This document shows positions 21,162 through 36,651 of a stretch of 64,000 bases of DNA, one piece after another. The translations under genes and the position numbers were made by a program. Each line of letters starts with the position of its first letter. Position 1 is the stretch's first letter. This stretch comes from a bacterium (GTDB taxonomy: Bacteria > Krumholzibacteriota > Krumholzibacteriia > LZORAL124-64-63). Below the pieces are notes generated by a model. That model saw only the letters and a program-made list of their open reading frames with translations, ran no database searches and had not been told where the DNA came from. The stretch covers positions 94,132-158,131 of the forward strand of contig JANOEP010000066.1 in NCBI GenBank assembly GCA_031441465.1, in the 5' to 3' direction.

Positions 21162-23777
21162 ATGTTGGGACCATTTAGGCTCCTGTTCGCAATCGTTTGG
21201 GGAAACCGGTCCACCTGCCGCGAGATGCCGCGACGAGCATTGCCGGCACGATGGCGTGTGTGCGTGGTATCCGTTGCGACGATCCTGGGGGTATCGACCT
21301 TGCCGGGATCGGCACTGTCGGGTTGTTTCGAGTATGGCGCCACACCTCGAAGGATCGGTGTCTTTGATGTTGACATGAATCAGCGCGACATCGCCGTAGG
21401 CGGCAACTATACATATGTGGCTGACTCACAGATCGGGATCAGGATCTACGATATCAGCGACGGCCATGCGCCTCAACTCGTCAATACCTGGAATATGGTG
21501 ATGTCTCCTGAGACCATCTCGGTGGACGGTGGCTATCTATACATCGGTGGTTCGACATCCGATATTTACATTGCCAACATCGTGGATCCGGTCAACCCCA
21601 GTATAGTCGGTAGCATGGTCGGTCCAGGTGGCGGATTCACGGTATCGCAGGGGTATATGTTTTTTTACGCAGGGGATGGAGGTCTATTGATCATCGACGC
21701 AACAGATCCCACAAACCCCAAGATAGCAAGCCGTGTGGACCTGTCGTACGGCTGTATGGGCATTGCTGCTGATTACCCGTATGTCTGTGTCATGGACGGT
21801 TTCTGGTACATTAATGTCATCGATATTCATGATCCCTATAATCCAGTCACCACTTCATCTGTTGACTTGTATCAAACATGCCTCAGCTTTGATGTTCTAG
21901 GTGATCATTTATTCATAATGGAGGATAGAATCCTCAAGCGTTACAATATTTCCGATCCGTACCACCCGAGCTACAGTGGCAATGTCGATTTGTCTGTGCG
22001 AGCAAACAATGTATTGGCATACAGTTACGATAGGGCAATAGTATCTTATGGCGCGAGTTTTGGCACGTATGGCAGTATCTGGTCGATCAATTTTTCCAAT
22101 GCCGCGCCATTCATGGTCGATTGGAAGATCCCCATGGCCATGCCGGCTCTTGTCGTGCAGGCTGATAGCTCGCGAGCGGTTGTACAGGAATATTCGTCGC
22201 ACATGGCGGCGGATAGATGGAGGTCGCAAATCGCCATCGTCGACATCGACGATGATGTTGTCTCGCCGCGCCCGGGAACCGACTACATCTCGTGGACGAT
22301 ACGTGCAGACTTGGCGGTGAATGGATCTTCTGCATATGTAAATCTCGGATTTGGAATCGGATTAGTCGATGTGACTGATGCCCTCGCTCCTTTCTACGTC
22401 AGCTATATCGGCATGCCGGAGTTGTCTGCACTGGCCGTGGATGGGGCGCTGATTTATGCCGCGTGCGCAGACAGTCGGTTGTATGCGATCGATGCAGGCA
22501 GTTTCCAGGAGCCAGTAGTATTGGGCAGCATCGACCTCCCTGGCGTGCCGACTGGATTGTCAGCCGAGTGCGGTGCCGTTTATGTCGCATGTGGCGGCGA
22601 CGTCACCGTCGTGGATGTTGCAGATCCGGGGGCGATGGCGGTGACTGGTACTGTGGTGACGCCCGGTGTGGCGGCCACTCTTGTAGCAGTCGGTAGTTAT
22701 GCATATGTGGCGGACGGTGCGGCGGGCTTGCAAATCATTGATGCGTCCGTACCTCAACATCCAGAAATCATCGGCCAGGTGGCGGCCCTTGGTATTGCGA
22801 ACAAAGTCGCAGTAGCGGATTCTTGCGCGTATGTTGCAAACGGCAGAGATGGGTTGCAGATCATCAATATCGCCGACCCGCTCGATCCGTATCAAACTGG
22901 AGTGTTTGTCGAATTTACAAATGTCGCCGATATTGCTGTTTCTGATGAATATGCATACTTGGCGTGTGGCGAACATGGAGTGTACGTAGTCGACGTAACG
23001 GACCCATTGGAGCCCAAGTTCACGGGAAGAGCATGGACGCAGGGCGATGCAGTGGGGATTGTGGTTGCCAATGACGTCGTGTATTACATCGATTCTGGCG
23101 GATATATCAATATTATACCGAGGCAATGCAGCGGCAGCGTGCCGGTGATGATGGCGGCATTCATGGCTGAAGAGATCGACGGCGGATGCGGCCTAGACGA
23201 CGGGTATGCGGGCGATGCTGCACAGACAAGACAGATCCGTGTGACTTGGCGGTTCGAGGAGCCTCTGGCAAGTAGCCGCCTCAGGCTCGAGGCTGAAGCA
23301 GATGACGCAACGTGGAGCATTGCACTGGGTGCGCCATCTGATAACAGTTTACTGTGCGAGTTCTTTGTTGATGACTGTGTGCCCATGACAATGAGTGGAA
23401 GATCAATTGTCTATCGTCTCCAATACTTCCGGAATGCCGGCGGTTGGGAGGAATTGGGAGAGACGTCGGTCGAATTGCTTGATCTGGCCATGCCCGGCGC
23501 CAGGGTGCCTGCATTGTCTGTCTGTCCGAACCCCTTCAACCCGAGCACGCAGGTGTCGTACGAGATGGCGCGCCCCGGGACTGCGCGGGTGACGGTCCAC
23601 GCACTGACCGGCGCGCTGGTGCGGGTGCTGGCGGACGGGCCGCAGACCGCGGGAGCGCACTTCGCGACGTGGGACGGCCGGGATGGGCGGGGGCGCGAGA
23701 TGCCGGCAGGCGGGTACGTGGTGCGGATCGCGACGGAGGCGGGGACCGGGGCGGTCAAGGCGGTGCTGGTGAGGTAA
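21162..23777 (+). CDS. LVIVD-repeat beta-propeller protein with a C-terminal FlgD-Ig / Por-secretion-tail-like sorting domain (paralog 1)
   Basis: 871 aa. Probable start at 21225 (MPRRAL...SGC, lipoprotein-like signal). Has approximately 40-aa periodic repeats (G.Q..D.S.P..P..). Confidence 0.75.
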   Translation: MLGPFRLLFAIVWGNRSTCREMPRRALPARWRVCVVSVATILGVSTLPGSALSGCFEYGATPRRIGVFDVDMNQRDIAVGGNYTYVADSQIGIRIYDISDGHAPQLVNTWNMVMSPETISVDGGYLYIGGSTSDIYIANIVDPVNPSIVGSMVGPGGGFTVSQGYMFFYAGDGGLLIIDATDPTNPKIASRVDLSYGCMGIAADYPYVCVMDGFWYINVIDIHDPYNPVTTSSVDLYQTCLSFDVLGDHLFIMEDRILKRYNISDPYHPSYSGNVDLSVRANNVLAYSYDRAIVSYGASFGTYGSIWSINFSNAAPFMVDWKIPMAMPALVVQADSSRAVVQEYSSHMAADRWRSQIAIVDIDDDVVSPRPGTDYISWTIRADLAVNGSSAYVNLGFGIGLVDVTDALAPFYVSYIGMPELSALAVDGALIYAACADSRLYAIDAGSFQEPVVLGSIDLPGVPTGLSAECGAVYVACGGDVTVVDVADPGAMAVTGTVVTPGVAATLVAVGSYAYVADGAAGLQIIDASVPQHPEIIGQVAALGIANKVAVADSCAYVANGRDGLQIINIADPLDPYQTGVFVEFTNVADIAVSDEYAYLACGEHGVYVVDVTDPLEPKFTGRAWTQGDAVGIVVANDVVYYIDSGGYINIIPRQCSGSVPVMMAAFMAEEIDGGCGLDDGYAGDAAQTRQIRVTWRFEEPLASSRLRLEAEADDATWSIALGAPSDNSLLCEFFVDDCVPMTMSGRSIVYRLQYFRNAGGWEELGETSVELLDLAMPGARVPALSVCPNPFNPSTQVSYEMARPGTARVTVHALTGALVRVLADGPQTAGAHFATWDGRDGRGREMPAGGYVVRIATEAGTGAVKAVLVR
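23526..23777 (+). repeat. conserved 3' sorting-domain cassette (copy 1 of 3)
   Basis: About 95% nucleotide identity to 26310-26561 and 28972-29224. The sequence ccgaaccccttcaacccgagcacgcaggtgtcgtacgag... recurs. Confidence 0.7.
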
Positions 23778-23832
23778 CGGTACCTCCATCGCGCTGATTC
23801 CAGATCATTCTCTTTCGCACCGACTCCCGCTC

Positions 23833-23841
23833 TGCTAGAAT
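23833..23841 (+). promoter_or_regulatory. extended -10 element TGcTAGAAT upstream of LVIVD paralog 2
   Basis: tctgctagaatgtcgccatctctcgtg matches the conserved block seen at 21024-21050. Confidence 0.4.
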
Positions 23842-23969
23842 GTCGCCATCTCTCGTGCACAAACCCGACGGAGGGTGAGCCTCATCATCTGGCTATCGAC
23901 CGGGGATCCTATCCCAAGTCAAATGTGATGTGCCGATGACCGTGACCCTTTGCACGAGGGGGCCGGACC

Positions 23970-26561
23970 ATGCCGAAGACTCGCCACCGTTCCGACTCGG
24001 AGCATGCCAGCCCGAGGACCTCCGCCACCAAAACACCGCTGCGGGAGACGACGCTGCGGCGACGCGCCGGGCTGGCCGCCGCGTCCCTCGCCTTGGCGTG
24101 CGTGTGCGCGTCCGGATCGGCGGCGACCGCCTGCACCGATTACCGGGACCACATCCGCGGCGTCAGCAGAGTCGACACGCCGGGACTGGCCTACGACGTG
24201 GCGGTCTCCGGCCTCTACGTCTACGTCGCGGACTGGTTGGCCGGCTTGCAGGTGATCGATGTCTCGTTCCCGTACTACGCCCAGATCGTGGGCGGCATCG
24301 ACACGCCGGGTCACGCCATGGACGTCGTCATCGTGGGGGATCTCGCCTACGTCGCGAATTACGAGCTCGGCCTGCAGGTGATCGACGTCTCGGATCCGCG
24401 ACACCCCTGGCTCAAGGGCAGCGTGGACACGCCGGGGCACGCCTGGCAGACGGCCGTGTCGGGCGACCGCGCCTATGTCGCGGACGATCTGTTCGGCCTC
24501 CACGTGATCGACATCACGGACCCGGCGCACCCGCAGCTCCTGGGCAGCGTGGACACGCCGGGGCACGCCTGGGGGGTGGCCGTCGCGGGGCCTTACGCCT
24601 ACGTCGCGGACGAGAATTTCGGTGTGCAGGTGGTCGACGTCACGGACCCCGCGAGTCCGCAGATCGTCGCCTGCCTGGACACGCCCGGCCAAGCCCGAGA
24701 AGTGGTCATCGCGGGCGCCAAGGCCTACGTCGCGGACGGCGACGCGGGCCTGCAGGTGTGCGACCTCTCGGACCCCGCCGACCCGCAGATCGTCAGCGGC
24801 GTCGACCGCTTCGGCTACTGCCACGGCGTCGTCTTGACGGGAACCACGGCTCACGTCGTGTTCGATTCCTACGTGTGCACGATCGACCTGTCCGACCCCC
24901 TGGCACCCGTCGTCGAGGACGGCCAGGGGATCGCCAGCGGCGCCACCAGCATCGCTGTTTCCTGGCCCTACGCCTTCGTGGCGAACGGCAGTTCCGGGGT
25001 GTTGGCGTTGGACGTTTCGGTCCCCGGGATCATCGGGAGCGTCGAGGCGCCGGGAGAGGCCGCAGCCGTCGCGGTATCGGGCGTCCACGCCTACGTGGCG
25101 GCCAGGGATGCCGGACTGCAGGTGTTCGATGTCGCGGATCCCTACCATCCCTTGGTCGTGACCGGTCTGGACACCCCGGGATACGCGGGCGACGTGGCGA
25201 TCTCGGGCACCTGCCTGCTCGTCGCGGACGGGGATGCGGGGCTGCAGGTGGTCGACATCGCGGATCCGGGTAACCCCGTGATCGTCGGCACGCTGGAGAC
25301 GCCCGGATTCGTCGGCGGCGTGGCGGTCGAGGGGACGATCGGCTACGTCGCGGCCGGGACGATCGGGTTGCTGGTGGTCGATCTCGCCGACCGCGAGCAC
25401 CCGGCGGTCCTGGGCAGCGTGAACACGCCCGGTTTCGCCCTGGACGTCTGCGTCGGGCGGGGCTGCGCCTACGTCGCGGACAGGAATACGGGCGTGCAGA
25501 TCGTCGATGTCGCGAACCCGTCGCAACCCGTCCTGCACGGCAACCTCGACACGCTCGGCGACGCCGAGGGCCTCGCGCTGGACGCGCGCTACTGGTACGG
25601 CCGCCTCTTCATCGCCGAAGGGGATTCCGGTCTCCAGGTCTACGACGTGTCGTCCCCGCTCTATCCCTGGCTCGTCGACAGCGGCACGACTCCCGGCCCC
25701 GCCCGCCGGATCGCGATCACGTACAACCACGCCTACGTCGCTCTCGAAGACCATGGTCTCTACGTCATGGAACGATCCTCGGGCGGCCCGTTCGCGGTCG
25801 AGCAGGTCAACGTGCCGGGACTGGTCCGCGGCGTCGCGGTCTCGGGATCCTTCGTCCTGATCGCTGCCGGGCCCGCCGGGTTGGCCGTGATGCCGGTCCA
25901 GTGCGACCTGAGCGTCCCTAACCTGCTCGCTTCGTTCAACGCGGCGGTGGCCGCGGCGTCGCCGCCATCGCCTGCGGCGCCCGGGCTGCCGGGCGCGCCG
26001 CTGCAGCGGCCGCGGGCCGTCGATCTGACCTGGTCGCTCACCGCCCCCCCGGCGCCCGGGTCCCTGCGCCTCGCCGCCGAATGCGCCGGCGCGGGTTGGG
26101 ACATCCCCTTCCTGCCGGACCCCCAGGGCGCCGCCGGGATGAGCTACGTGGCCCGCGATGACTCCCCCCTGCTCGCAGGCGTGCCGCGGGCACGCTACAC
26201 GCTGCTGCACGCCGTGACCCCCGGCGCCTGGACGGCGCTGGGCGACGTGACGGTCGTGTTCGGGACTTCCGAGACGCCCGGCGCGGCCGTGCCGCAACTC
26301 CACGTGTACCCGAATCCCTTCAACCCGAGCACGCAGGTGTCGTACGAGCTGACGCGGCCCGGCGTGGCGCGGGTGACGGTCCACGCGCTGACCGGCGCGT
26401 TGGTGCGGGTGCTGGCGGACGGGCCGCAGGCCGCGGGAGCGCACTTCGCGACGTGGGACGGCCGGGACGGGCGGGGGCGCGAGATGCCGGCCGGCGGGTA
26501 CGTGGTGCGGATCGCGACGGAGGCGGGGACGGGGGCGGTGAAGGCAGTGCTGGTGCGTTGA
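23970..26561 (+). CDS. LVIVD-repeat beta-propeller protein with C-terminal sorting domain (paralog 2)
   Basis: 863 aa with tandem repeats of the GLQVIDVSDP..P...G.VDTPG.A..V.V.G..AYVA type. The C-terminal 85 aa is identical or near-identical to paralogs 1 and 3. Confidence 0.8.
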   Translation: MPKTRHRSDSEHASPRTSATKTPLRETTLRRRAGLAAASLALACVCASGSAATACTDYRDHIRGVSRVDTPGLAYDVAVSGLYVYVADWLAGLQVIDVSFPYYAQIVGGIDTPGHAMDVVIVGDLAYVANYELGLQVIDVSDPRHPWLKGSVDTPGHAWQTAVSGDRAYVADDLFGLHVIDITDPAHPQLLGSVDTPGHAWGVAVAGPYAYVADENFGVQVVDVTDPASPQIVACLDTPGQAREVVIAGAKAYVADGDAGLQVCDLSDPADPQIVSGVDRFGYCHGVVLTGTTAHVVFDSYVCTIDLSDPLAPVVEDGQGIASGATSIAVSWPYAFVANGSSGVLALDVSVPGIIGSVEAPGEAAAVAVSGVHAYVAARDAGLQVFDVADPYHPLVVTGLDTPGYAGDVAISGTCLLVADGDAGLQVVDIADPGNPVIVGTLETPGFVGGVAVEGTIGYVAAGTIGLLVVDLADREHPAVLGSVNTPGFALDVCVGRGCAYVADRNTGVQIVDVANPSQPVLHGNLDTLGDAEGLALDARYWYGRLFIAEGDSGLQVYDVSSPLYPWLVDSGTTPGPARRIAITYNHAYVALEDHGLYVMERSSGGPFAVEQVNVPGLVRGVAVSGSFVLIAAGPAGLAVMPVQCDLSVPNLLASFNAAVAAASPPSPAAPGLPGAPLQRPRAVDLTWSLTAPPAPGSLRLAAECAGAGWDIPFLPDPQGAAGMSYVARDDSPLLAGVPRARYTLLHAVTPGAWTALGDVTVVFGTSETPGAAVPQLHVYPNPFNPSTQVSYELTRPGVARVTVHALTGALVRVLADGPQAAGAHFATWDGRDGRGREMPAGGYVVRIATEAGTGAVKAVLVR
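26022..26561 (+). repeat. conserved 3' cassette (copy 2; extended homology with copy 3)
   Basis: Shares RAVDL.WSL ... MSYVARDDSPLLAG ... PNPFNPSTQVSYE... with 28675-29224. Confidence 0.65.
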
Positions 26562-26629
26562 ACGACGTCGCATTGCAGGTATGACGACGCGTGGTGCAGA
26601 TCGTTGTCACGAATCGAGGAGGCCCGGCC

Positions 26630-29224
26630 ATGACAGGATGCCCGTCGAGTCCGTTTCATTGGCACGTCCTGGCGCGGGCCAGGCGCCCGATCGCGCCGCT
26701 GCGCGGGAGGCCGGTGTGTGGCCTCGGTCTGGTGGTCGTGATCCTCTCGCTGGCCTCCAGCCTGTACGGGGTCGATTGGTGGTACTGTTTCAACTACTAC
26801 GGTTACTTGAAATGGGTGGGTAGGCTCGACACGCCTGGCAACGCCAGCGACATCGAAATCGCCGGCGGTCACGCCTACGTCGCCGATTTGTTTTCGGGAC
26901 TGCAGATCGTCGATATCACCGGACCGGAGCCGCCCCAGATCGTCAGCAGCATTCCGATCACCAACGGCGCGATGGGCGTCGCCGTCGAGGGCGACCACGC
27001 CTTCGTCGTGGACGCCGCCGCACGTCTGCATGTCGTCGACGTTACGGACCCCGCGGAACCTGAGGTCGTCAGCAGCGTGGACGTGGAGGGATCTGCGTAC
27101 GGCGTGGTCATCGCCGGTCACTACGCCTACATGGCCGCCGGTTACGCCGGAGTCCAGATCATCGACATCACGGACGTGAGCGACCCGCGGCTGGTCGCGA
27201 CCGTCAACACCCCCGTCTCCGCGATGGGCGTGACCATCTCGGGATCGTACATCTACGTTGCTGACGGCACTTCCGGCCTGCAGGTGATCGACATCACGGA
27301 TCCGGCCACGGCGCAGATCGTGGGCGGGCTGAACACGCCGGGAGAAGCTCTCAACACGGAGATCGTCGGCGCTTATGCCTACATCGCGGATTCCGGTACC
27401 GGATTGGTGGTGGCGGACATCACGATCCCCCAATCGCCGGTGATCGTCGCTGTGGTGCCCATGCCGGGGAATGCCCGGGATATGGTGTTGTCGCCAGCAT
27501 TCCTCTACGTCGGGGACTCGACGGGCCTGCATCTGGTCGACGTCACGGCACCCGGGTCTCCCGAACTCGTCGACAGCTACGGGCTCACTGATGACGTCAC
27601 GAGCGTGGCCGTGGTGGGCGATCTCGTCTTCGCCGCCGTCGATGTGCGTGGGATCGAGATCATCGAGACGACGGATCCGGTCCCCTCGGCCAGCTTGGAC
27701 CTGCCGGGAACCGCCGCTGGCGTATCCGTCCAGGGCGATTACACATACCTCGCGTGCGGCGATGCCGGATTGTGCGTGGTCGATGTCTCGAACTATCTGG
27801 ATCCCCGGTTGGTAGGCACCGGGATCGTGCCGGGGAATGCCGTCGATGTGGCAGTCGTGGGGCCGTACGCCTACGTCGCCGCCAGCGAGTCCGGCCTCCA
27901 GGTGGTCGATGTCTCCGACCCCGCGAGTCCACAGCACGTCGGCGGTGTGGACACGCCGGGTTCGGCGTGTGCGGTCGCGATCGCCGGCACCATCGCCCAT
28001 GTCGCGGACGGCGTCGGCGGTCTGCTTCTGGTCGACGTTGCGGACCCTGTTCATCCCGCCATCGTCGGCGGCGTGGACACGCCGGGCAGCGCCCAAGGTG
28101 TATACGTGTTGAATTCCCGAAACAAGACTTACGTCGCCGATGGTGTGTCGGGCGTGCAGGTCGTCGATATCGTGGATCCCGGAAACCCCGTGATCGTGGA
28201 TGTCATCGAGACGCTGGACGACGCCGTCGGCATCACCTTCACGTCGACTCACGGCATCCTCGGCTATCTCTACGTGGCTGAAGGCGTCGGCGGCATCCAG
28301 GTATTCCGCGTCATGGCCGACGGCCAGGTGACACCTCAGGCCATCGGTGGACTGGCCTCGCCGGGCGGTGCCCGGAACCTGTGCATCTCCGGACCCTACG
28401 GCTACATCGCCGAGGGTCCGGCCGGGATCCAGGTGTGCCAGTATTACCAGCAAGGTCTGCAATCCGTTCGCCTCGTCGATGAAATCGCCGAAGCGCTGGA
28501 TGTGATCGCGAACAATAGGAACGTCTATGTCGCGTGCGGCACCGCCGGATTGACTGTTCTGCCGCAACAATGCTCTGGAGAGGGAGTGCCGGTCGTGCTG
28601 TCCACATTCACCGCCGCCGTGAGCGAACCCGATGCGGGGGACTCCGAGGTCCAGGGCGCACCGCCACGACGGCCCCGGGCCGTCGATCTGGCGTGGTCGC
28701 TAGCGGAGCCGATCGATGCGATATCCTTGCGGCTGAGCGCCGAGTCGGCCGGCGATAGCTGGGACGTCTCCTTCCTGCCGGGCCCCCTCGGCGCACCCGA
28801 CATGAGCTATGTCGCCCGTGACGATTCCCCCTTGCTGGCGGGGGCGCCTTCGGTCCGCTACACGCTGCTGCACGCCGCGTCTCCCGGCGCCTGGGCGGCG
28901 CTGGGCGACGTGACGGTCGTGTTCGGGTCCTCGTCGACGCCCGGCGCGCTCGTGCCGCAGCTCCACGTGTACCCGAACCCCTTCAACCCGAGCACGCAGG
29001 TGTCGTACGAGATGGCGCGGCCCGGGACGGCGCGGGTGACAGTCCACGCGCTGACCGGCGCGCTGGTGCGGGTGCTGGCGGACGGGCCGCAGGCCGCGGG
29101 GGTTCACTACGCGGTGTGGGATGGCCGGGACGAGCGCGGGCGCGAGATGTCGGCCGGCGGGTACGTGGTGCGGATCGCGACGGAGGCGGGGACGGGGGCG
29201 GTCAAGGTGGTGCTGGTGCGCTGA
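26630..29224 (+). CDS. LVIVD-repeat beta-propeller protein with C-terminal sorting domain (paralog 3)
   Basis: ATG at 26630 after gaggagg. Has the same repeat architecture. The last about 180 aa are highly similar to paralog 2. Confidence 0.8.
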   Translation: MTGCPSSPFHWHVLARARRPIAPLRGRPVCGLGLVVVILSLASSLYGVDWWYCFNYYGYLKWVGRLDTPGNASDIEIAGGHAYVADLFSGLQIVDITGPEPPQIVSSIPITNGAMGVAVEGDHAFVVDAAARLHVVDVTDPAEPEVVSSVDVEGSAYGVVIAGHYAYMAAGYAGVQIIDITDVSDPRLVATVNTPVSAMGVTISGSYIYVADGTSGLQVIDITDPATAQIVGGLNTPGEALNTEIVGAYAYIADSGTGLVVADITIPQSPVIVAVVPMPGNARDMVLSPAFLYVGDSTGLHLVDVTAPGSPELVDSYGLTDDVTSVAVVGDLVFAAVDVRGIEIIETTDPVPSASLDLPGTAAGVSVQGDYTYLACGDAGLCVVDVSNYLDPRLVGTGIVPGNAVDVAVVGPYAYVAASESGLQVVDVSDPASPQHVGGVDTPGSACAVAIAGTIAHVADGVGGLLLVDVADPVHPAIVGGVDTPGSAQGVYVLNSRNKTYVADGVSGVQVVDIVDPGNPVIVDVIETLDDAVGITFTSTHGILGYLYVAEGVGGIQVFRVMADGQVTPQAIGGLASPGGARNLCISGPYGYIAEGPAGIQVCQYYQQGLQSVRLVDEIAEALDVIANNRNVYVACGTAGLTVLPQQCSGEGVPVVLSTFTAAVSEPDAGDSEVQGAPPRRPRAVDLAWSLAEPIDAISLRLSAESAGDSWDVSFLPGPLGAPDMSYVARDDSPLLAGAPSVRYTLLHAASPGAWAALGDVTVVFGSSSTPGALVPQLHVYPNPFNPSTQVSYEMARPGTARVTVHALTGALVRVLADGPQAAGVHYAVWDGRDERGREMSAGGYVVRIATEAGTGAVKVVLVR
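28675..29224 (+). repeat. conserved 3' cassette (copy 3)
   Basis: Same as the entry above. Confidence 0.65.
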
Positions 29225-29458
29225 AGCGGTCCGGTCCTGTTCCCAGCTCGTCTGGCTCGCCAGGCCTCCGATTCCGGGCGAAGTCTTTCGCCGGTGGTGA
29301 CGTTTCCGTATCATTTCTATGATTATGACAGTCGAGTATCGATCCGATATGCAGTTCCAGGGTATCGCCCGCCAGGGTGCGGCATCACGAAGGGAGCGTC
29401 GACGTCCTGACGGATCCGCTCCGGCAGTTCGTCGGCGACACGGACACATCCACCTTCA

Positions 29459-31825
29459 ATGCCAAGGATGATCACGATGAAGACCCGATCGGCACCAGGG
29501 AAAGTTCCGGAGATCCGGCTGCTGCTCGTGCTCGCGACTGCGCTGGTCGCCGCGCTCGCCGGCTTCACGACCAGCGCCGGAGCCACCGGCGAGATCCTCA
29601 GTTGGGGCGGGACGGTCGTCGTCGCCCAGGATGCCTTGACTAACCTGTCGGCGGTGTCGGCGGGCGAGGGGCATAGCCTGGGTCTGAAGACCGACGGGTC
29701 GATCGTCGCCTGGGGACGCAACAACTTCGGCCAATGCACCGTGCCGGCGCCCAACGCGGGGTTCGCGGCGGTGGCGGCCGGCGGCGAGTACAGCCTGGGC
29801 CTGAAAGCCGACGGCTCCGTCGTGGTGTGGGGATCCAGCCAGGACGGTCTTCATGACGTGCCCGCGCCGAACCTGGGATTCACGGCCGTGTCGGCCGGGA
29901 TCTACCATGCGCTGGGCCTGAAGGCCGATCAGACCGTCGTGGCGTGGGGCTACAACCTTGCGCCGGGCGGCGATCCCGGCGGCCAGTGCGACGTGCCGTC
30001 TCCGAATCAGGATTTCACGGCGGTCGCCGCCGGCGGATTCCACAGCGTGGGCCTGAAGTCCGACGGGTCCGTCGTCTGTTGGGGTAACAACCGGAGCGGC
30101 CAGTGCGACGTGCCTGCGCCGAACACGGGCTTCACGGCGATCGCGGCGGGCATGGACCACAGCATGGGTCTGAAGGCCAACGGTTCCATCGTCGTGTGGG
30201 GCGACAACAGTATGGGCCAGTGGAACGTGCCGGCGCCGAACTCCGGGTTCATGGCCCTGGCGGCGAGCAGGTACGGCAGCACGGGTCTGCGGCCCAACGG
30301 CACGATCGTCGCCTGGGGCGACGACTGGGGGATGGGCCCCGCCGTGCCGTACCCGAATGCGGACTTCACGATGATCGCGACGGGATCCATGCACAAGCTG
30401 GCCCTGAAGTCCGACGGGACCGCCGTCGCCTGGGGCTCGAACGTGTTCGCCCAGTGCAACCTGCGCCCGGCGAGCCTCGGCTGCACGGAACTGGCTGCGG
30501 GGACGATGCACTGGCTGGGCCTCAAATCGAACGGATCCATCGTCGGCTGGGGTGCGAATTCCAGCGGCCAGGCCACGGCGCCCACGGTGAACACGGGTTT
30601 CACGGCGCTAGGGGCGGGACGATACCACAGCCTGGCTCTGAAGACCGATGGTTCGATCGTCGCCTGGGGTGGCAACTTCAACGACGATCTCGAATACACC
30701 GGCCAGTGCAACGTGCCGGCGCCGAACGCGGGGTTCGTGGCGATCGCCGGGGGCGGCTATTTCAGTTTGGGCGTGAAGGACGACGGCTCCGTCGTCGCAT
30801 GGGGTGACAACCGGCTCGGCCAGTGCGACGTGCCGGCGCCGAACGCCGGGTTCGCGGCGGTCGCGGCGAGCGACCGTCACAGCCTAGGCCTGATGCTCGA
30901 CGGCTCCGTCGTCGCCTGGGGGGACAACCTGCACGAACAGTGCAACGTCCCCGGATCGAACTCGGGCTTCACGGCGATCGCGGCGGGCGGCGACCACAGC
31001 CTGGGGTTGAAGGTCGACGGCTCCATCGTCGCTTGGGGAGACAACCAGTTCGGCCAGTGCGAGGTCCCCGCGCCGAACGCGGACTTCATCGCGGTGGCGG
31101 CGGGCGACATCCACAGCCTGGGCCTGAAATCCGACGGGTCGATCTTCGCGTGGGGGAGCCACGGATCCGGTCGGTGCGACGTGCCCGCGCCTAACGCGGG
31201 TTTCACGGCGATCGCGGCGCGTGGCGACGTCAGCCTGGGGATCCGCAGCCTCGTGCCGCAATCCGTCCAGCTGACCCGGTTTGACGTCGAGCGCCGCGGC
31301 GGCCGGGCGACGGTCCGCTGGGCGATGTCCCGGCCGCTCGACCACGCCGGCTTCCATCTCTGGCGGCAGGAGCCCGGCAGCGACCGTGTTCGTCTGAGCC
31401 AGATGCTGTTGATCGGTGAGAACACCTACGACTTCATCGACCGGTCACCGCCGAGGGGAAAGGCGGAATATTGGCTGCAGGAAGTGACGACCGACGGTTC
31501 GGAGAACTGGTACGGCCCCGCGCTCCTGGAGGCAGCCCCGATTCCGACTTCCTTGCATTTGGCCCAGAATCGTCCCAACCCTTTCAATCCAAGCACATCG
31601 TTCAACTTCGAGCTCCCAAAACCTGGCCGCGCCGTACTGGTGATCTACGACGTGCGGGGCGCACGTGTCGCAACATTGGTCGATGCCGGCGTGTCCGCCG
31701 GTGAGCAAAGCATGGAATGGGGCGGCCTCGATGACGGCGGTGTCCCGATGCCTTCGGGGATCTACTTCGCGCGGCTGGAGGCGGAGGATGGTATTCGGAC
31801 GATCAAGGTGACTCTGGCGCGATAA
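29459..31825 (+). CDS. RCC1-repeat (alpha-tubulin-suppressor-like) beta-propeller protein with C-terminal FlgD-Ig / Por-tail-like domain
   Basis: 788 aa with about 13 tandem repeats of HSLGLK.DGS.V.WG.N..GQC.VP.PN. The C-terminus is RPNPFNPSTSFNFELPKPGRAVLVIYDVRGARVATL...GIYFARLEAEDGIRTIKVTLAR. Confidence 0.8.
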   Translation: MPRMITMKTRSAPGKVPEIRLLLVLATALVAALAGFTTSAGATGEILSWGGTVVVAQDALTNLSAVSAGEGHSLGLKTDGSIVAWGRNNFGQCTVPAPNAGFAAVAAGGEYSLGLKADGSVVVWGSSQDGLHDVPAPNLGFTAVSAGIYHALGLKADQTVVAWGYNLAPGGDPGGQCDVPSPNQDFTAVAAGGFHSVGLKSDGSVVCWGNNRSGQCDVPAPNTGFTAIAAGMDHSMGLKANGSIVVWGDNSMGQWNVPAPNSGFMALAASRYGSTGLRPNGTIVAWGDDWGMGPAVPYPNADFTMIATGSMHKLALKSDGTAVAWGSNVFAQCNLRPASLGCTELAAGTMHWLGLKSNGSIVGWGANSSGQATAPTVNTGFTALGAGRYHSLALKTDGSIVAWGGNFNDDLEYTGQCNVPAPNAGFVAIAGGGYFSLGVKDDGSVVAWGDNRLGQCDVPAPNAGFAAVAASDRHSLGLMLDGSVVAWGDNLHEQCNVPGSNSGFTAIAAGGDHSLGLKVDGSIVAWGDNQFGQCEVPAPNADFIAVAAGDIHSLGLKSDGSIFAWGSHGSGRCDVPAPNAGFTAIAARGDVSLGIRSLVPQSVQLTRFDVERRGGRATVRWAMSRPLDHAGFHLWRQEPGSDRVRLSQMLLIGENTYDFIDRSPPRGKAEYWLQEVTTDGSENWYGPALLEAAPIPTSLHLAQNRPNPFNPSTSFNFELPKPGRAVLVIYDVRGARVATLVDAGVSAGEQSMEWGGLDDGGVPMPSGIYFARLEAEDGIRTIKVTLAR

Positions 31826-31858
31826 ACGGCTTGTCGTTCCAGCTGGATGCACCCACGT

Positions 31859-32191
31859 TCACCCGGCGATCTGCGCGGCCCTGCGTCGGATCACCGCTCC
31901 CGCAATGGCGCCAGCGAACGACATCGCGAGTACCAGGAGCATGCCGACGTTCAACTGACGCCATTCAGCAACGATCAGCGGTCCAGCAATCAGGATGGCC
32001 GCCACCCACGGGAGCACGCCGGCGAGTGCGGCCAGCCCCGCTGTCAGCAACAGCGCACCCGCCGTGATGCCCGTATCGTCCCAGTTCGGGCGGGTGTCCA
32101 TCCAGGCGATGGCCAGCCCCGCGGCCAGCGTCAGGACGAGGCCCACGGCGGCCACCGCCGCGGACCGCGGCCCTTTCGATGTCTTCGGCAT
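31859..32191 (-). CDS. hypothetical small membrane protein
   Basis: Three hydrophobic helices (AAVAAVGLVLTLAAGLAIAW, AGALLLTAGLAALAGVLPWVAAILIAGPLIV, MLLVLAMSFAGAIAGAVI). The start chosen is the internal M (MPKTSKG). Confidence 0.4.
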   Translation of the reverse strand: MPKTSKGPRSAAVAAVGLVLTLAAGLAIAWMDTRPNWDDTGITAGALLLTAGLAALAGVLPWVAAILIAGPLIVAEWRQLNVGMLLVLAMSFAGAIAGAVIRRRAAQIAG

Positions 32192-32358
32192 GGGAGCCTC
32201 CCGTCTCGCTCCGGATCCGGGGCGTGACTGCCAGCGAACCTGGTCACGGTAACGGAATCCTCGAACACGCGCCAAGCCTCTTCGTTCCGGCCCGGCAGCA
32301 GGAGAATCGCGCTGGCGCCCCCCGCCCCCCTCCGCTAGGATCCCCCCGGAGGTACCCC

Positions 32359-32577
32359 ATGTTCCTGAAACTCCTGCTCTGGCTGCTGCTGTTCGTGCTG
32401 TGCTGGCCGCTGGCCATCCTGGCGCTGATCTTCTTCCCGCTGATCTGGTTGCTGCTGCTGCCGTTCAAGATCCTGGGCATCGCGGTCACCGGCGTGCTGG
32501 AACTGTTCAAGGCGATCATCATGCTGCCGGCCAGGGTGCTGGGCGGACGTCCCGGCGCCAAGCCGAAGCGCCCCTGA
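32359..32577 (+). CDS. hypothetical small hydrophobic protein (72 aa, 2 TM)
   Basis: ATG at 32359 after ggagg. Sequence is MFLKLLLWLLLFVLCWPLAILALIFFPLIWLLLLPFKILGIAVTGVLELFKAIIMLPARVLGGRPGAKPKRP. Confidence 0.45.
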   Translation: MFLKLLLWLLLFVLCWPLAILALIFFPLIWLLLLPFKILGIAVTGVLELFKAIIMLPARVLGGRPGAKPKRP

Positions 32578-32610
32578 GGCGCCGCCCACCGCTCCCGACG
32601 AAGGACCACC

Positions 32611-33795
32611 ATGCCGACCCGTCGCGGCTGCCAGAGAGCGATCCGCGCGAGCGCGTTGTGCGTGTTCGCGCTGTTCGGTTGTGCGGCGGCGGCGGCCCAG
32701 GGCCTCGACGGTCTGCTGTCGGCCGGCTATTGGGTCCCGCAGCCCGGTGAGCGGGTCCAGCTCGCCTTGGACCTCGACGGGCACGGCACCGAATTCCACC
32801 TGCTGCGCCACCACGAGGGCACCTCGATCCTCTTCGCGGTGCGCGACCGCGCCACCGGCCGCGACGTGGCCGTGGTCAAGACCAACTCCCTGAGCACAAA
32901 CGTGAGCGCGGAGATCTACGCCTGGCGGCTGGCGGTCGTGCTGGGCTTTCCCGAGGTGGTCGCGCCCGTCTCGCCCGTCACCCTCTCGGGCCGCTCCCTG
33001 GCCAAGCTGCGCGACCTGCTGGCGGGCGTGTCTTACGGCGCGTCGCGCAAGGAGGACGCGCGGCGCGAGGTCCTGGCCGAACTCGACCGCGTGCTCGCCG
33101 CCGGTCGCGGCCTGCCCGGCGCGATCAAGCCCTGGCTCGACTGCTTCGTCCAGAACCGGCGGCTGGGCTCGCGCGAATCGCTCGCCGATACGGACGCGGC
33201 CGCCTGGCTGCGTGCCGGCGGGCCGCATCCCGACGACGGGATCGTTGCCCTGTCGCAGGCGAGCGACCTGCAGGAGCCGCACGGCATCCACCTCGGGCGC
33301 ATCCCGGCGCGCCGGCTCGCCGCCGACCTCGCGGACATCATGCTGCTGGACGCGCTGATGGGGCAGGACGACCGCTTCGCCGGCGGCAACCTGCACGTCT
33401 GGCGCGACGGCGGCGAGCGCAGGCGAACGGGCGGCGGGCAGGAGATGCCCCTGTGGGATCTGGGTGAGGTGCGGCTGCTGGCGCTGGACAACGGGGCGGC
33501 CCTGCGCCCGGGCCTCAACACGGGGCTGCGGGACCTGCGCGGCGAGATCCACCCGGGCGTGCGCGCCGAGCGCTTCGACCGCGGCGTCGTGGAGCGGTTG
33601 CGGGAGCTGAAGCGTCAGACGGCGGTCGCGGACTCCGCACAGGTCTGGGAGATCCTGGGTCTGGCCGGCAAACGCGCCGACCTGGCGGCGATCCGGCTCG
33701 CCGACGTCCTCGACTACCTCGACGGCCTCGAAGCCGTGCGCGGCGTGGATATCTGGTTGCCGGACGCCGCGGTCAGGGACCGTCGCTGGCCGTGA
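32611..33795 (+). CDS. hypothetical secreted protein with a protein-kinase-like (PI3/PI4-kinase-like) catalytic-loop motif
   Basis: Signal peptide MPTRRGCQRAIRASALCVFALFGCAAAAAQG. Contains VAVVKTN (lysine motif), AEIYAWRLAVVLG and DIMLLDALMGQDDRFAGGNLHVW (a D-R-..-N-..-W loop). Confidence 0.4.
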   Translation: MPTRRGCQRAIRASALCVFALFGCAAAAAQGLDGLLSAGYWVPQPGERVQLALDLDGHGTEFHLLRHHEGTSILFAVRDRATGRDVAVVKTNSLSTNVSAEIYAWRLAVVLGFPEVVAPVSPVTLSGRSLAKLRDLLAGVSYGASRKEDARREVLAELDRVLAAGRGLPGAIKPWLDCFVQNRRLGSRESLADTDAAAWLRAGGPHPDDGIVALSQASDLQEPHGIHLGRIPARRLAADLADIMLLDALMGQDDRFAGGNLHVWRDGGERRRTGGGQEMPLWDLGEVRLLALDNGAALRPGLNTGLRDLRGEIHPGVRAERFDRGVVERLRELKRQTAVADSAQVWEILGLAGKRADLAAIRLADVLDYLDGLEAVRGVDIWLPDAAVRDRRWP

Positions 33796-35857
33796 CCTTG
33801 ATCACGACCGACGGCAGCACGACTCCGGGATGATCCGCGCCGAAGTTCCAGACGACCGACCGCGAGTCGCCGACCGCGACCCCGGACCCCACGTGCCCCG
33901 TCGTCGTGTTCACGACCAGATTCCAGGTAGCTCCCCCATCATCCGAAGCCGCCAGGGTCACGTTCACGGCCGGGCTGTCGGGATCGGCCAGGTCGTAGCT
34001 CACGTCGACCAGGCCCGATCCGTCGGAGCGCTGCGCGAACACGACGTTGCTCGCGAGGGGCGGCTCCGGGCTGCCCGCCACCAGCGAGTAGGCCTGGCTG
34101 CCGCCGCTGAGCGTCCCCTTGTGCCGCACGATGACGCGGTAGGCGCCGGCTTGGACCGCGGCGGTCTCGGCCTTCTCCACGTTGTCGCGCACGTTGTCGC
34201 CGCGGACCGCCCAGGCGCCCGGCGACGCCGGGTTCAGGGTCCAGGGTTGGGTGACCTGGCCGCCGCTCACGCGCTCGAGGCGCAGGTCGAGGTCGTTGAC
34301 CAGCACGAGCTGGGTCGGGTTCAGCGTCCAGGGTTGCACGGGGCCGGGCGGGTCGTTCCAGGCCAGGGTGGCGGTGACCGGCCCGGCGCCGTTGCTCCAG
34401 ATCACGAGCGTGTCGGCCTCGCCCTGGGCCAGCGTCGCTTCGGTGATGCGCGAGGGGAACGCGAGGTCGCCGGCGATCAGCAGGCCGGCGGCTTCGGCGT
34501 CCAGCAGGCCCCAGCCGTAGGAGTAGTCGGGACCCGGCGAGGCGCCGGTCTCGCTCGCGGTGTGAATCGTGACGGCCTTGAGCGTGGCCGAGCGGGCCGT
34601 CTGGCCGCCGTGGACGTCGCGCCAGAGCTGGGCCAGCAGGTGCAGCGAACCGGAAGCGTTGGGGGTCGCCATCGAGGTGCCGCTGTAGCTGGCGTAGCTG
34701 GCGTTGGTCGCGGTGCCGCAGCTGTAGAGCAGGACGCCGTTGGCCACCAGGTCGGGCTTGATGCGTCCGTCGTCGGTGGGACCCCAGCTGCTGAAGGACG
34801 ACATCGTCACGTCGGCGGGCTGGGTCCAGCCGCCCGGCACGTCGAGGATGGCGCCGATGGTCAGGATGTTCTTGCAGGTGCCGCGGTAGGGGATGCAGTC
34901 GAAACCGTCGGCGCCGCCGTCCTGTTCGCGGGTCGCCGTGCTCTGCGCCCAGTCGTCGAGGCCGGGATCCCAGTAGTAGTGCAGGCCGCCGGGGCCGGGC
35001 CCGTAGTTGGCGCGGTCGTTGCCCGCGGCGCAGACGATCAGGTAATTCGGGGCGTCGTGGGCGGTCTGGTCCCACTCCTGCGAGTAGCTGCTGTAGATGC
35101 CGAAGCCGGGGTCCTGCGTCAGGCTGACGTCGACGTCGCCGTACCAGTACCAGGCCGACTGCGAGCTGTTGTAGTACCAGCCCGCGACGAACGAGTAGCT
35201 GTGGTTGGAGATCAGCAGGCCCTGCGCGGCGGCCGCCGCCATCTCGATCTCGTCGTCGGTCCAGTCGTAGCTGTCCAGCCACGCGGCCGGCGACATGCCG
35301 TGCGCCAGGGGATCGACGCCGGTGGCGGCCATCGTGCCGGCCACGTGCGTGGCGTGGTAGTGGACCGACGGGGAGCCGTCCTGCACGACGGCCCGGCCGC
35401 CGAATTCCTGGTGGGAGGTCAGCACGGCGCCGGCGTCCCAGACGGCCAATTCACCGGCCGCGTTGGCGCCGTCGAGGTCCAAACCCGTGGCGCCGCCCGG
35501 CCACAGCCGGTCGGTGCCGACGGTCTGCGCGGCGACGAGGTTCAATGTCTGCAGGAACAGCGGCCGGCCCCGCTCGGTGCCGACCAGCATCAACGAGGTG
35601 TCCCGGTTCAACGCGGCCTGCGGGCCGTCGGTCGCCGCGAGCAACTCGCGGTAGCGCGGCGTGCGCCGCGCCGCGGCGCGGGCCGCCAGGTCGCGGGCCT
35701 GCGCCTGCAGTTCCTTGACGCGGGTGCCGTCCGCGGGGGAGGCGCGGCGGGGAAGCCCACCCTGGCGCGCGGCGCCGGTCAGGAGCGCGGCGGCCGATAG
35801 GGCGGCGGCCAGCAGGGCCAGGATCAGTAGGCCACGGCGGAATTTGCGTGTCGACAT
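33773..35857 (-). CDS. S8-family subtilisin-like serine peptidase
   Basis: Signal peptide MSTRKFRRGLLILALLAAALSAAALL. Contains HGTHVAGT (His) and GTSMATPNASG (Ser) and has C-terminal beta-rich extension domains. Confidence 0.8.
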   Translation of the reverse strand: MSTRKFRRGLLILALLAAALSAAALLTGAARQGGLPRRASPADGTRVKELQAQARDLAARAAARRTPRYRELLAATDGPQAALNRDTSLMLVGTERGRPLFLQTLNLVAAQTVGTDRLWPGGATGLDLDGANAAGELAVWDAGAVLTSHQEFGGRAVVQDGSPSVHYHATHVAGTMAATGVDPLAHGMSPAAWLDSYDWTDDEIEMAAAAAQGLLISNHSYSFVAGWYYNSSQSAWYWYGDVDVSLTQDPGFGIYSSYSQEWDQTAHDAPNYLIVCAAGNDRANYGPGPGGLHYYWDPGLDDWAQSTATREQDGGADGFDCIPYRGTCKNILTIGAILDVPGGWTQPADVTMSSFSSWGPTDDGRIKPDLVANGVLLYSCGTATNASYASYSGTSMATPNASGSLHLLAQLWRDVHGGQTARSATLKAVTIHTASETGASPGPDYSYGWGLLDAEAAGLLIAGDLAFPSRITEATLAQGEADTLVIWSNGAGPVTATLAWNDPPGPVQPWTLNPTQLVLVNDLDLRLERVSGGQVTQPWTLNPASPGAWAVRGDNVRDNVEKAETAAVQAGAYRVIVRHKGTLSGGSQAYSLVAGSPEPPLASNVVFAQRSDGSGLVDVSYDLADPDSPAVNVTLAASDDGGATWNLVVNTTTGHVGSGVAVGDSRSVVWNFGADHPGVVLPSVVIKVTASDGP

Positions 35858-35880
35858 CGCGAGCCTCCTGCTGCTTCCTG

Positions 35881-36651
35881 CTACTTCAAGAGGGTGAGCC
35901 GCGCCGTCAAGGCGTCGCGACGGTCGGCGCCGCGCACGTCCAGGCGCGCGAAGTACGTCCCGCTCGGGGCGGAGCGGCCGTCGGATCCGCGCCCGTCCCA
36001 GGCCGCGGCGTGGCGGCCGGCCGGCCAGTCGCCCTGGGCGAGGGTGGCCATCACGCGCCCGCGCACGTCGAAGACCGTCAGTTCGATCACGGCCGCGGCG
36101 CGCAGGTTGAAGGCCACGGTGGTCCCGGGGTTGAAGGGGTTGGGATGCACCGGGCCGAGGCGGTCGACCGTCACGGTCGGCGGCGTGCCGGTGCCGCTGC
36201 CCTCGATCGCGAACTCCCCGCCCTGGTCGGCGCCGATCCCGCCGAAGCGGTCGACGGCCCCCACCGCCAGCACGGCCGCGGCCGTCGCGTGGTCGGGGAC
36301 GGTCCAGACCCAGGTGTACTGGCCGTCGGGATCGGGCGGTACGAGGGCCTGCGCGAGCACTTCGGCGCCGTCGAACACCGTCACGGTGATCGCCGCCGGT
36401 GCGGCGCCCCAGCTCGATTCGTCGACGCTCCAGCGCAGCGTCTCCTGGGCGGCGGCCTGCAGCGACTCGCCGCCGGCCGGGTACAACACCGACACGAGCG
36501 GCGGGCGGCTGTCCAGGGTGTCGGGCGCGGAGACGGCGCTGCCCGTCGCGGCGGCGGCGGGGCCGGCGGCGACGAGGCTGATGGCGACCAGGACGGCGGC
36601 GGACAAGACGCCGTGCGGCGGCGAAACGCCACGGATCGTTGCGGTACGCAT
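35881..36651 (-). CDS. secreted protein with C-terminal FlgD-Ig / Por-tail-like domain
   Basis: Signal MRTATIRGVSPPHGVLSAAVLVAISLVAAGPAAA. The C-terminus is HPNPFNPGTTVAFNL...VFDVRGRVMATL...WDGRGSDGRSAPSGTYFARL. Confidence 0.6.
   Translation of the reverse strand: MRTATIRGVSPPHGVLSAAVLVAISLVAAGPAAAATGSAVSAPDTLDSRPPLVSVLYPAGGESLQAAAQETLRWSVDESSWGAAPAAITVTVFDGAEVLAQALVPPDPDGQYTWVWTVPDHATAAAVLAVGAVDRFGGIGADQGGEFAIEGSGTGTPPTVTVDRLGPVHPNPFNPGTTVAFNLRAAAVIELTVFDVRGRVMATLAQGDWPAGRHAAAWDGRGSDGRSAPSGTYFARLDVRGADRRDALTARLTLLK

Follow-up and report, generated by a model that had tools for sequence, protein, structure and literature searches.

Background

Known sorting domains of the kind discussed here are the T9SS type A C-terminal domains (CTDs; TIGR04183/PF18962), of which the solved examples (RgpB, PorU, PorZ and mirolase) come from Bacteroidota. 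Motifs of such CTDs in the literature are a conserved beta3-beta4 glycine motif (G699 of RgpB) and, at the C-terminus, the 'C-t.' motif with a basic residue (PMC11285876). Small CTD proteins have been described as well: PorA of P. gingivalis counts 246 aa and consists of a signal peptide, an Ig-like domain and a CTD, and Fjoh_0547 of F. johnsoniae is a CTD protein of 112 aa (PMC7712824). A second related system is the Ig domain of the FlgD hook cap (PF13860), a beta-sandwich. Krumholzibacteriota, the phylum concerned here, belong to the FCB superphylum.

We analyzed a 64-kb stretch of DNA, hereafter called the window, from an uncultured Krumholzibacteriota bacterium of a MAG lineage. A preliminary description had pointed to seven ORFs sharing one domain and had read them as a dedicated system for surface display or sorting. 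The overall explanation that we consider likely is a set of T9SS-tagged cargo proteins in a variable slot, together with a minimal member of 127 aa and a lipoprotein whose module is unrelated to sorting.

A domain common to seven proteins

A homologous FlgD-Ig-like beta-sandwich of about 90 aa is present in all seven ORFs, which confirms that one domain connects them. Pfam PF13860 (FlgD_ig) matches each of the seven. With a gathering cut-off of 27 bits, six pass at 32-42 bits and the lipoprotein is slightly under it (24.7 bits). When a local HMM built from the seven window copies was searched against all six-frame ORFs of the window, exactly these seven were recovered (i-Evalues 1e-24 to 5e-34), and the copies can be aligned end to end. 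Among the domains of three LVIVD-repeat proteins (A, B and C) identity is 83-88%; the remaining pairs show 23-39% identity. All seven proteins start with an N-terminal signal, recognized by eye in the translations as a basic n-region that leads into a hydrophobic stretch.

The position of the domain divides the seven ORFs into three classes. In five of them, namely LVIVD A, B and C, the RCC1-repeat protein D and a 256-aa protein, it reaches the stop codon, as it does in all 21 matches within 556 kb of relatives' loci. These five are C-terminal tags. The second class is one domain-only protein of 127 aa, where the domain ends one residue before the stop, and the third is the lipoprotein, where the domain is internal with 90 residues after it, as had been stated earlier. 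The seven can however not be treated as one group: the lipoprotein represents a separate family, and the gene of the 127-aa protein, conserved and syntenic, is found 25 kb from the cluster. The proposed enrichment of the domain is real (10.9 copies per 100 kb in the window against 3.8 in the 556 kb of fetched Krumholzibacteriota loci) but modest. Three of the seven copies are tandem paralogues.

With respect to the origin of the DNA, the ProRS of the window shares 92-96% identity with its counterparts in wastewater MAGs and 70-83% with those in MAGs labelled Krumholzibacteriia or Krumholzibacteriota.

C-terminal tags of a probable T9SS type

LVIVD A is an LVIVD-repeat beta-propeller protein of 871 aa (21162..23777, plus strand; Pfam LVIVD 8e-27, FlgD_ig 2e-8) with its tag at 23526-23774; translation probably begins at the ATG at 21225, after which comes a lipobox-like LSGC. 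On the same strand follow LVIVD-repeat protein B (23970..26561, 863 aa; LVIVD 3e-98, FlgD_ig 7.5e-9; tag 26283-26558), LVIVD-repeat protein C (26591..29224, 877 aa; LVIVD 4e-76, FlgD_ig 4e-8; tag 28946-29221) and the RCC1-repeat beta-propeller protein D (29459..31825, 788 aa; tag 31547-31822). The fifth tagged gene (35881..36693; FlgD_ig 8e-11) is located on the minus strand. It had been listed as a 270-aa protein at 35881-36651, yet 256 aa are obtained from the ATG at 36651, and 270 aa from a TTG at 36693. The 256-aa product consists of a signal peptide, a passenger of some 130 aa without assignment and the tag (35884-36171).

These five tags match the T9SS CTD type in sequence and fold. Among solved structures, sequence matches are obtained to the CTDs of RgpB (E 2.9e-4) and PorZ (E 1.9e-3), and the CTD of PorU is matched at residues 1060-1139 of 1156 (E 4.2e-4). 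The fold is a compact Ig-like beta-sandwich of seven strands that can be superposed on the solved CTDs. In the tag alignment (A1) G38 is invariant, canonical tags start with an invariant PNPFNP, in strict form PNPFNP(S/T)T, and all 19 canonical tags compared end in R or K, most of them with a further K or R near position -6. Scores for TIGR04183 straddle its curated cut-off of 23 bits: C (24.8) and D (26.8) are above, whereas B (21.4), the 256-aa protein (19.8) and A (16.5) are below, and the lipoprotein and the 127-aa protein yield no match. No window protein matched PF18962 at E<0.01 in our Pfam scan. Nonetheless, among 120 listed of the 6652 tag homologues most carry precomputed PF18962 (Por_Secre_tail) and PF13860 annotations. 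The earlier reading as a Por-tail or T9SS-like sorting domain can be maintained for most of the seven, but not for the lipoprotein.

The best match among solved structures is the Ig domain of FlgD (E 7e-11, 24-27% identity), to which the tags are closer in sequence than to the Porphyromonas CTDs. The beta-sandwich is common to both. Identity with the hook cap itself was rejected: the match is confined to the Ig-like part and reaches 15-31 bits, where the equivalog cut-offs are 230-383. Moreover, the window proteins lack the N-terminal domain of FlgD, Pfam and NCBIfam scans found no flagellar genes in the window, and the domain is here appended to the ends of secreted passengers of unrelated kinds. 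Compared to the type A CTDs of Bacteroidota, the Krumholzibacteriota tags differ by a FlgD-like insert (W.G.D..G..V.SGVY) and by the strict start motif. The model of the 'choice-of-anchor B' LVIVD-type surface proteins (TIGR04312) is matched weakly by LVIVD B and C (69 and 51 bits against a family cut-off of 100).

It could be argued that the domain is a structural or adhesive module (for the cell surface or for carbohydrate binding) rather than a secretion signal, and that the proteins are exported in some other way or remain in the outer membrane or the periplasm. We regard this as unlikely. All 26 canonical copies extend to the very last residue, on unrelated passengers; an invariant start combined with a basic residue at the end is characteristic of a terminal signal; and the profile matches to the CTDs of RgpB, PorU and PorZ fall on the C-terminal ends. 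Passengers in the relatives are of typical secreted types (S8 peptidases with PKD-like repeats, FG-GAP, Big_5 and LVIVD proteins), with N-terminal signal peptides. The suggested test for a cleavage signature at the C-terminus would tell little, since cleavage by PorU is reported to be independent of sequence (PMC4804311).

On the preferred reading of T9SS-tagged cargo, LVIVD A, B, C, RCC1 D and the 256-aa protein would be exported by Sec, after which the tag would carry the folded passenger from the periplasm across an outer-membrane T9SS translocon. The tag may then be removed, or may attach the protein to the cell surface. Dependence on T9SS, if confirmed, would extend a well-studied export system of Bacteroidota to a phylum about which little is known and which is common in sediments and wastewater, and a search for the PNPFNP...R/K tail would yield a list of the surface and secreted proteome of this phylum. 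Current understanding would not be overturned. The claim of novelty for the lineage holds only in part: our literature search found no report on T9SS in Krumholzibacteriota, nor in one paper on Latescibacteria, but the tag itself already bears an NCBI label, homologues in Latescibacteria, Eisenbacteria and other MAGs being named 'T9SS type A sorting domain-containing protein'.

Cargo genes in a hypervariable slot

The cluster is flanked by pdxT and, on its right, by a conserved module, and comparison with relatives (loci designated L001 and onwards) shows that it is a hypervariable slot for cargo genes. At the left end of the module is a small membrane protein, the 72-aa conserved core (32359..32577, plus strand) of a 132-aa ORF, with tblastn identities of 86% in L003 and 97% in L086, where a 72-aa gene is called at the corresponding position. 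The small membrane proteins mentioned before are in fact two overlapping ORFs, of which this plus-strand one is conserved in relatives and the other is not. Next come a secreted or lipoprotein-like protein of 394 aa (32611..33795, plus strand; 84-86% identity in L003 and L086), an S8 subtilase of 694 aa (33773..35857, minus strand; Peptidase_S8 3e-29; 88% in L086), the 256-aa tagged protein (255 aa and 86% identity in L086) and, at the right end, a SIMPL (DUF541) protein (36798..37703, minus strand; 9.5e-24; 93% in L086). Pfam thereby confirms the S8 and SIMPL assignments made previously. The S8 protein bears a signal or an anchor at its N-terminus and is untagged at the C-terminus.

Close relatives hold different subsets of A-D. 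The order is pdxT-B-C in L002, pdxT-C-?-D followed by the module in L003, and pdxT-A-X422 followed by the module in L086. An orthologue of A (P0133, 87% identity) has the same position after pdxT in JADHEF010000292; B is 86% identical in L002 and 74% in L001, and C is 92% identical in L002 and L003. A repeat search identified a family of direct DNA repeats (D4) that code for the tags, with three copies of 280 nt on the plus strand (23492-23771, 26276-26555 and 28939-29218) at 88-89% identity. By blastn the tag-coding block of A is 92-93.5% identical to that of B or C over 246 nt (93.5% to B); identities to the B and C tags in L002 and L003 are 95-96%. The near-identical repeat is also carried by the low-GC gene A, the body of which has a GC content of 40-63%.

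Such repeats may well promote unequal crossing-over and gene conversion among the tandem cargo genes, and their ability to recombine would account for the different A-D subsets in the relatives. Even gene A, compositionally foreign, bears the resident tag. A slot whose genes vary between close relatives, together with tag-coding repeats that are likely substrates of recombination, could be of specialist interest. A mobile-element origin of the island was considered and dismissed: the window contains no tRNA, and no integrase or transposase was found among the genes scanned. An Rfam scan of the whole window gave zero family matches.

Search for export and attachment genes

No T9SS core gene (gldKLMN, sprA, porV, porU and others) was detected in the window when every sizeable ORF was scanned with Pfam or NCBIfam, nor among some 26 ORF families from relatives' loci scanned with NCBIfam. 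The latter scan covered eight large ORF sets and nine sets of ORFs with signal peptides or transmembrane segments, and neither these sets nor the window gave a match to GldK/L/M/N, SprA, PorV, PorU, PorP or PorQ; this sample of the relatives' ORFs is small, so that the negative outcome says little about the whole genome. The search for T9SS machinery that the preliminary description had called for therefore returned nothing in the 64 kb or in the sampled loci.

Two kinds of candidates were considered. FGE-sulfatase genes are found beside tagged genes (60269-61336 in the window, adjacent to the 127-aa gene, and in L034), but their resemblance to GldK/GldJ is weak and they are not GldK: the window gene reaches 51.4 bits for the T9SS ring lipoprotein GldK/PorK (TIGR03525, cut-off 350), and it is matched best by PvdO and by a variable protein of Treponema. 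An 810-aa propeller protein with a tag in L027, examined as a PorZ candidate, matches the PorZ model by its tail alone (40.6 bits against 260), scores 19.5 bits for Reg_prop (against 20.4) and has no PDB match to PorZ.

Might the module itself process or attach the tags, as a sorting system specific to the lineage built from the S8 peptidase, the 394-aa protein, the membrane protein and SIMPL? The closest relatives keep the module beside the slot, which would fit, as would the S8 gene starting 23 nt past the stop of the tagged 256-aa gene on the same strand, and the 394-aa and membrane proteins have no Pfam or NCBIfam match. Against this, the S8, SIMPL and 394-aa genes occur in the nearest relatives only (L003 and L086). 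These genes are absent from that neighbourhood in more distant Krumholzibacteriota loci, although tagged proteins are still there, and the sequences with tagged proteins number thousands and represent several candidate phyla. Furthermore, S8 is a common secreted protease and a frequent passenger of the tag itself (L018 and L036). We judge this possibility very improbable. Because the module is confined to the closest relatives and the tagged proteins are phylum-wide, these neighbouring genes cannot act as machinery for the tag in general; what had been taken for a dedicated system is a cargo slot in which no machinery gene was found.

The 127-aa domain-only protein

The 127-aa protein (61552..61935, plus strand; FlgD_ig 6.7e-10) is essentially the domain alone, as described before: a signal peptide, a PPGAPGRPG linker and one tag-homologous domain. 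Comparison of its family with the tag family by hhalign gives a probability of 99.8% over 89 columns; residues 37-126 align to the tags and the remainder is signal peptide and linker. The structure model has a pLDDT of 78, with values of about 90 within the sandwich. Neither the PNPFNP start nor the C-terminal basic residue of canonical tags is present.

An obvious concern is that such a protein could be a gene fragment or an error of gene calling, the C-terminal end cut off from some larger cargo gene. Indeed most database proteins of about 100 aa named 'sorting-domain' look like fragments (2 of the 74 starting with Met have a signal peptide), and the stop-to-stop ORF of the 127-aa gene extends upstream to 61333. 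The protein has however its own signal peptide, and its orthologues form 12 sequence clusters of 49-100% identity, again with signal peptides, in which length is kept (115-127 aa for the full-length ones) and 46 columns of the alignment are invariant. The gene is syntenic, between nadE and an adenosine deaminase gene, and keeps this position even where a complete tagged LVIVD protein is the upstream neighbour. In the window the upstream gene is in a different frame, with a 137-nt structured element in between. In our opinion a fragment is hardly credible. A 155-aa call of the gene is present in run SRR20217196.

Most probably the protein is a very small substrate or accessory of a T9SS and can be compared with the small CTD proteins known in Bacteroidota. 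Its minimal architecture (signal peptide plus tag) recalls that of PorA and Fjoh_0547, as does that of the 256-aa protein (signal peptide, small passenger and tag). The likeness is one of architecture; no sequence homology to PorA was seen. The 127-aa protein lacks the canonical motif of the first strand as well as the basic residue at the end, and no link to a regulator of the PorXY-SigP type is known for the window proteins. As a conserved protein consisting of the tag only, it would offer a simple probe for whatever recognises the tag.

A bolder interpretation is that the FlgD-Ig-type tag of Krumholzibacteriota and neighbouring candidate phyla is handled not by a canonical T9SS of the Bacteroidota type but by a divergent or different outer-membrane apparatus for export and attachment, to which the 127-aa protein would belong as a dedicated part that occupies the tag-binding site, be it as plug, shuttle, decoy or signalling ligand, and, separately, that the tag repeats are recombination handles by which foreign passengers such as low-GC gene A are shuffled or captured onto a resident tag. 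We consider it improbable.

The top matches of the tag profile of about 100 aa were not accepted as precedents for domain-only proteins, because they mostly lack signal peptides and are fragment-like. One protein of this size, P0107, is encoded by a stand-alone gene among LPS genes.

The lipoprotein with an internal copy

The 234-aa lipoprotein (43198..43902, plus strand; lipobox LIGAC) carries its FlgD-Ig-like module at approximately 43351-43629. The domain envelope covers residues 63-155 of the stop-to-stop ORF 43165-43902, which corresponds to about 52-144 of the 234-aa protein. It is a member of a separate, widespread family of about 234 aa and not a sorting tag. Among 1.84 billion representatives 2238 proteins match, many of them full-length at 225-245 aa and others giant proteins with 4-17 matched stretches. 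Here the fold of the tag serves as an internal structural module unrelated to sorting, present in up to 17 tandem copies in the giant proteins.

Shared domain in seven ORFs

According to the preliminary description, seven ORFs of the window carry one common beta-sandwich domain, and this is borne out. All of them match Pfam PF13860 (FlgD_ig), six above the gathering cut-off and the lipoprotein (43198-43902) just below it (24.7 bits against 27). An HMM built from the seven copies and searched against all six-frame ORFs of at least 50 aa returned the same seven in the window and no others (i-Evalues 1e-24 to 5e-34), and the copies can be aligned end to end. The shared domain is therefore real and not a chance motif. 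The ORF described as 270 aa long does contain it, but lies on the minus strand and probably measures 256 aa, with ATG 36651 as its start codon; the orthologue has a gene call of 255 aa. The idea of one single group, however, has to be given up, as the ORFs fall into three classes: terminal tags, a tag-only protein and the lipoprotein. Two features of the region are of moderate interest: an apparently recombining cargo slot and a conserved tag-only gene.

Host genome

The window is chromosomal DNA of about 72% G+C with ordinary housekeeping genes (trp operon; proS, pdxS and pdxT; RND efflux genes; ackA-pta; nadE). Its ProRS shares 92-96% identity with that of four MAGs (two with Danish wastewater-plant sample names), 70-83% with MAGs bearing the label Krumholzibacteriia or Krumholzibacteriota and 55-61% with Bacteroidota. 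These identities place the host in Krumholzibacteriota, within the FCB superphylum. Two ORFs upstream of proS (406 and 419 aa, 15225-17695) are kept as a pair beside this gene phylum-wide at 32-87% identity, with no match in Pfam or NCBIfam. The 419-aa product has a signal peptide and a C-terminal end (...LRLGYRF) resembling that of an outer-membrane beta-barrel.

Terminal domains as sorting tags

In five of the seven ORFs the domain ends at the stop codon: the LVIVD-repeat proteins A (21162-23777), B (23970-26561) and C (26591-29224), the RCC1-repeat protein D (29459-31825), all on the plus strand, and the 256-aa protein. When the same HMM was applied to 556 kb of Krumholzibacteriota loci, 21 further copies were found and every one ends exactly at the stop codon. 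The passengers in relatives bear signal peptides and are unrelated to each other (S8 proteases with PKD-like repeats, FG-GAP, Big_5, LVIVD propellers). The tag consensus opens with PNPFNP, which is invariant, and closes with R or K.

Among solved structures, the tag profile hits RgpB (E 2.9e-4), PorU (residues 1060-1139 of 1156, E 4.2e-4) and PorZ (E 1.9e-3) at their C-terminal ends, although the FlgD Ig domain is a better match (E 7e-11). C and D exceed the cut-off of NCBIfam TIGR04183 (type A sorting domain), with B, A and the 256-aa protein just under it. A profile search of 5.8 billion proteins yielded 6652 homologues; on most of the 120 listed, both PF18962 (Por_Secre_tail) and PF13860 are precomputed. 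[quoted passage not shown] Taken together, the profile matches, TIGR04183, the homologue annotation and this labelling make type-A-like T9SS sorting tags, in a lineage variant near FlgD-Ig, the best-supported reading of the terminal domains.

The best-scoring public hits (P0001-P0120) are 83-168-aa 'T9SS sorting domain' proteins, mostly without a signal peptide, and several on long contigs begin a few residues before PNPFNP. Such short hits probably arise from frameshifts, contig ends or internal starts, and database counts of 'domain-only' proteins would therefore be inflated.

Secretion machinery

No T9SS machinery genes were found within the 64-kb window or among about 26 ORF families scanned from the loci of relatives. 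The FGE-sulfatase gene beside the 127-aa gene was considered as a GldK candidate, but model scores ruled this out: secreted proteins of this family, which adjoin tagged or tag-only genes at two loci (window 60269-61336; L034, from a relative, 6876-7920), reach 51-82 bits with GldK/GldJ models whose cut-offs start at 350, a weak resemblance, and look more like PvdO and a Treponema variable protein. Likewise, the resemblance to PorZ of a propeller protein with a tag in another relative (L027) is confined to its tail.

The preliminary description proposed a dedicated display or sorting system, and only part of this stands: the sorting-type domain is shared, but the cluster is a variable cargo slot (see below). 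The module of S8 subtilase, 394-aa protein and SIMPL is unlikely to be the machinery, being confined to the nearest relatives whereas tagged proteins occur phylum-wide and beyond. Judged by tag homology, the tags probably depend on a T9SS, and the system would be an instance, in a new lineage, of an already known kind. A literature search found no paper on T9SS in Krumholzibacteriota, and T9SS is possibly present in several other FCB phyla according to one review.

Variable cargo slot between pdxT and the HAD gene

Relatives share a common backbone, in which the 406-aa and 419-aa ORFs, proS, pdxS and pdxT are followed, after a gap, by genes for a HAD hydrolase and a PLP decarboxylase. The distance from pdxT to the HAD gene varies between about 2.5 kb and 17.5 kb, and close relatives differ in what fills the left part of this gap. 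In the window, pdxT is followed by A, B, C and D and then the full right-hand module (small membrane protein, 394-aa protein, S8 subtilase, 256-aa protein and SIMPL). One relative (L002) has B and C, a second (L003) has C, an unaligned stretch and D before the small membrane protein and the 394-aa protein, and a third (L086, JADHEF01) has A and an unrelated 422-aa gene before the full module. The 'island' is thus a hypervariable slot for cargo genes, next to a conserved module that is specific to the clade. A tRNA search and family scans revealed no tRNA, integrase or transposase in the slot.

Clustering of the tags is statistically modest. Outside the three orthologous loci, the background in relatives is 3.2 copies per 100 kb (16 in 498 kb); at that density a 64-kb stretch should hold about 2, and the window has 7. 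Counting the tandem trio as a single event leaves five independent units, an excess that a Poisson estimate no longer finds significant at the 5% level.

A, B and C all end in a direct repeat of 246-280 nt with 88-93.5% identity, and these copies are 95-96% identical to the B and C tags of relatives. Gene A is a mosaic (21162-23777; 10001-12616 in L086): its body has 40-63% G+C and its tag (last 246 nt) about 79%, against 72% for the genome. The switch is abrupt, and the orthologue in L086 has the same pattern. Whereas the tag is 92-96% identical to those of neighbouring paralogues, the body protein shares only about 33% identity with B and C; apart from two orthologues (87% and 69%), its best homologues reach at most 35% and come from many phyla. 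This suggests that gene A is a captured foreign passenger with a converted resident tag, which fits the reported species-specificity of T9SS tags (PMC11285876). We infer that gene conversion and unequal crossing-over take place through the tag repeats; such recombination would account for both the homogenised tags and the presence/absence variation of cargo.

Elsewhere in the phylum, varied tagged cargo (S8 with PKD, LVIVD, BNR-like and others) is seen at various points of the proS-pdxS-pdxT-HAD neighbourhood (L007, L018, L021, L022 and L023), apparently a place where cargo genes have landed repeatedly. Within the module, 23 nt separate the S8 subtilase gene from that of the 256-aa tagged protein on the minus strand (33773-36693), with SIMPL upstream. 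Given the common strand, the spacing and the conservation of all three in L086, one operon is likely. The S8 protein itself lacks the tag; an Asp-box-like motif (SDDGGATW) is found in its C-terminal region.

Lipoprotein and tag-only protein

The lipoprotein belongs to a separate, large uncharacterised family in which the fold is an internal building block rather than a signal. A search of 1.84 billion representative proteins gives 2238 matches, many of them full-length at 225-245 aa, and 41 representatives of the family lie at E<1e-30. Towards its N-terminus the lipoprotein has a CarboxypepD_reg-like stretch, and its FlgD-Ig-like domain is internal. The domain segment on its own also finds giant proteins of 1000-4900 aa with 4-17 matched stretches.

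The 127-aa protein (61552-61935) is made up of a signal peptide, a linker (PPGAPGRPG) and a single domain, which aligns with the tag family over 89 columns (hhalign probability 99.8%). Its search yielded twelve orthologous sequence clusters (49-100% identity); full-length orthologues measure 115-127 aa, all have signal peptides and their alignment holds 46 invariant columns. In a relative with 83% identical ProRS the gene also lies between nadE and an adenosine deaminase gene; its upstream neighbour there encodes a complete LVIVD protein with a tag, where the window has the FGE-sulfatase protein. Judged by this conservation, it is a genuine gene of small size rather than a fragment. The region also occurs, in identical form, in an assembly of run SRR20217196.

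The family has PFPRTADP or PHPRVADP where canonical tags have PNPFNPST and, unlike these, lacks the terminal basic residue, ending in ...LPV(I/L)G. The predicted model is a six- to seven-strand sandwich (pLDDT about 90), with Foldseek matches including PorZ, PorU, the RgpB CTD, the translocon-bound RemA and NucA tags, FlgD and Fn3-like domains. Public 'sorting domain' proteins of about 100 aa were rejected as precedents, being fragment-like and mostly without signal peptides. Precedents do exist in Bacteroidota (PMC7712824; PMC12152298): PorA (246 aa; signal peptide, Ig-like domain and tag) binds PorV and feeds PorXY-SigP signalling, and Fjoh_0547, a 112-aa tagged protein, is secreted even in sprA and porV mutants. 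The 127-aa protein may plausibly serve as a minimal substrate or as an accessory or regulatory ligand.

A 137-nt near-perfect three-way-junction inverted repeat (61336-61472, plus strand) lies between the 127-aa gene and that of the FGE-sulfatase protein; in it, a 25-bp outer stem surrounds two hairpins of 14 and 18 bp. Its predicted RNA folding energy is -126 kcal/mol (z = -15.9 against shuffles). No Rfam family matches the element, which is present once in the window and, among the fetched loci, recurs only in L082, from the other assembly of the same genome. Just downstream, at 61501-61509, is an extended -10-like sequence (TGgTATAAT).
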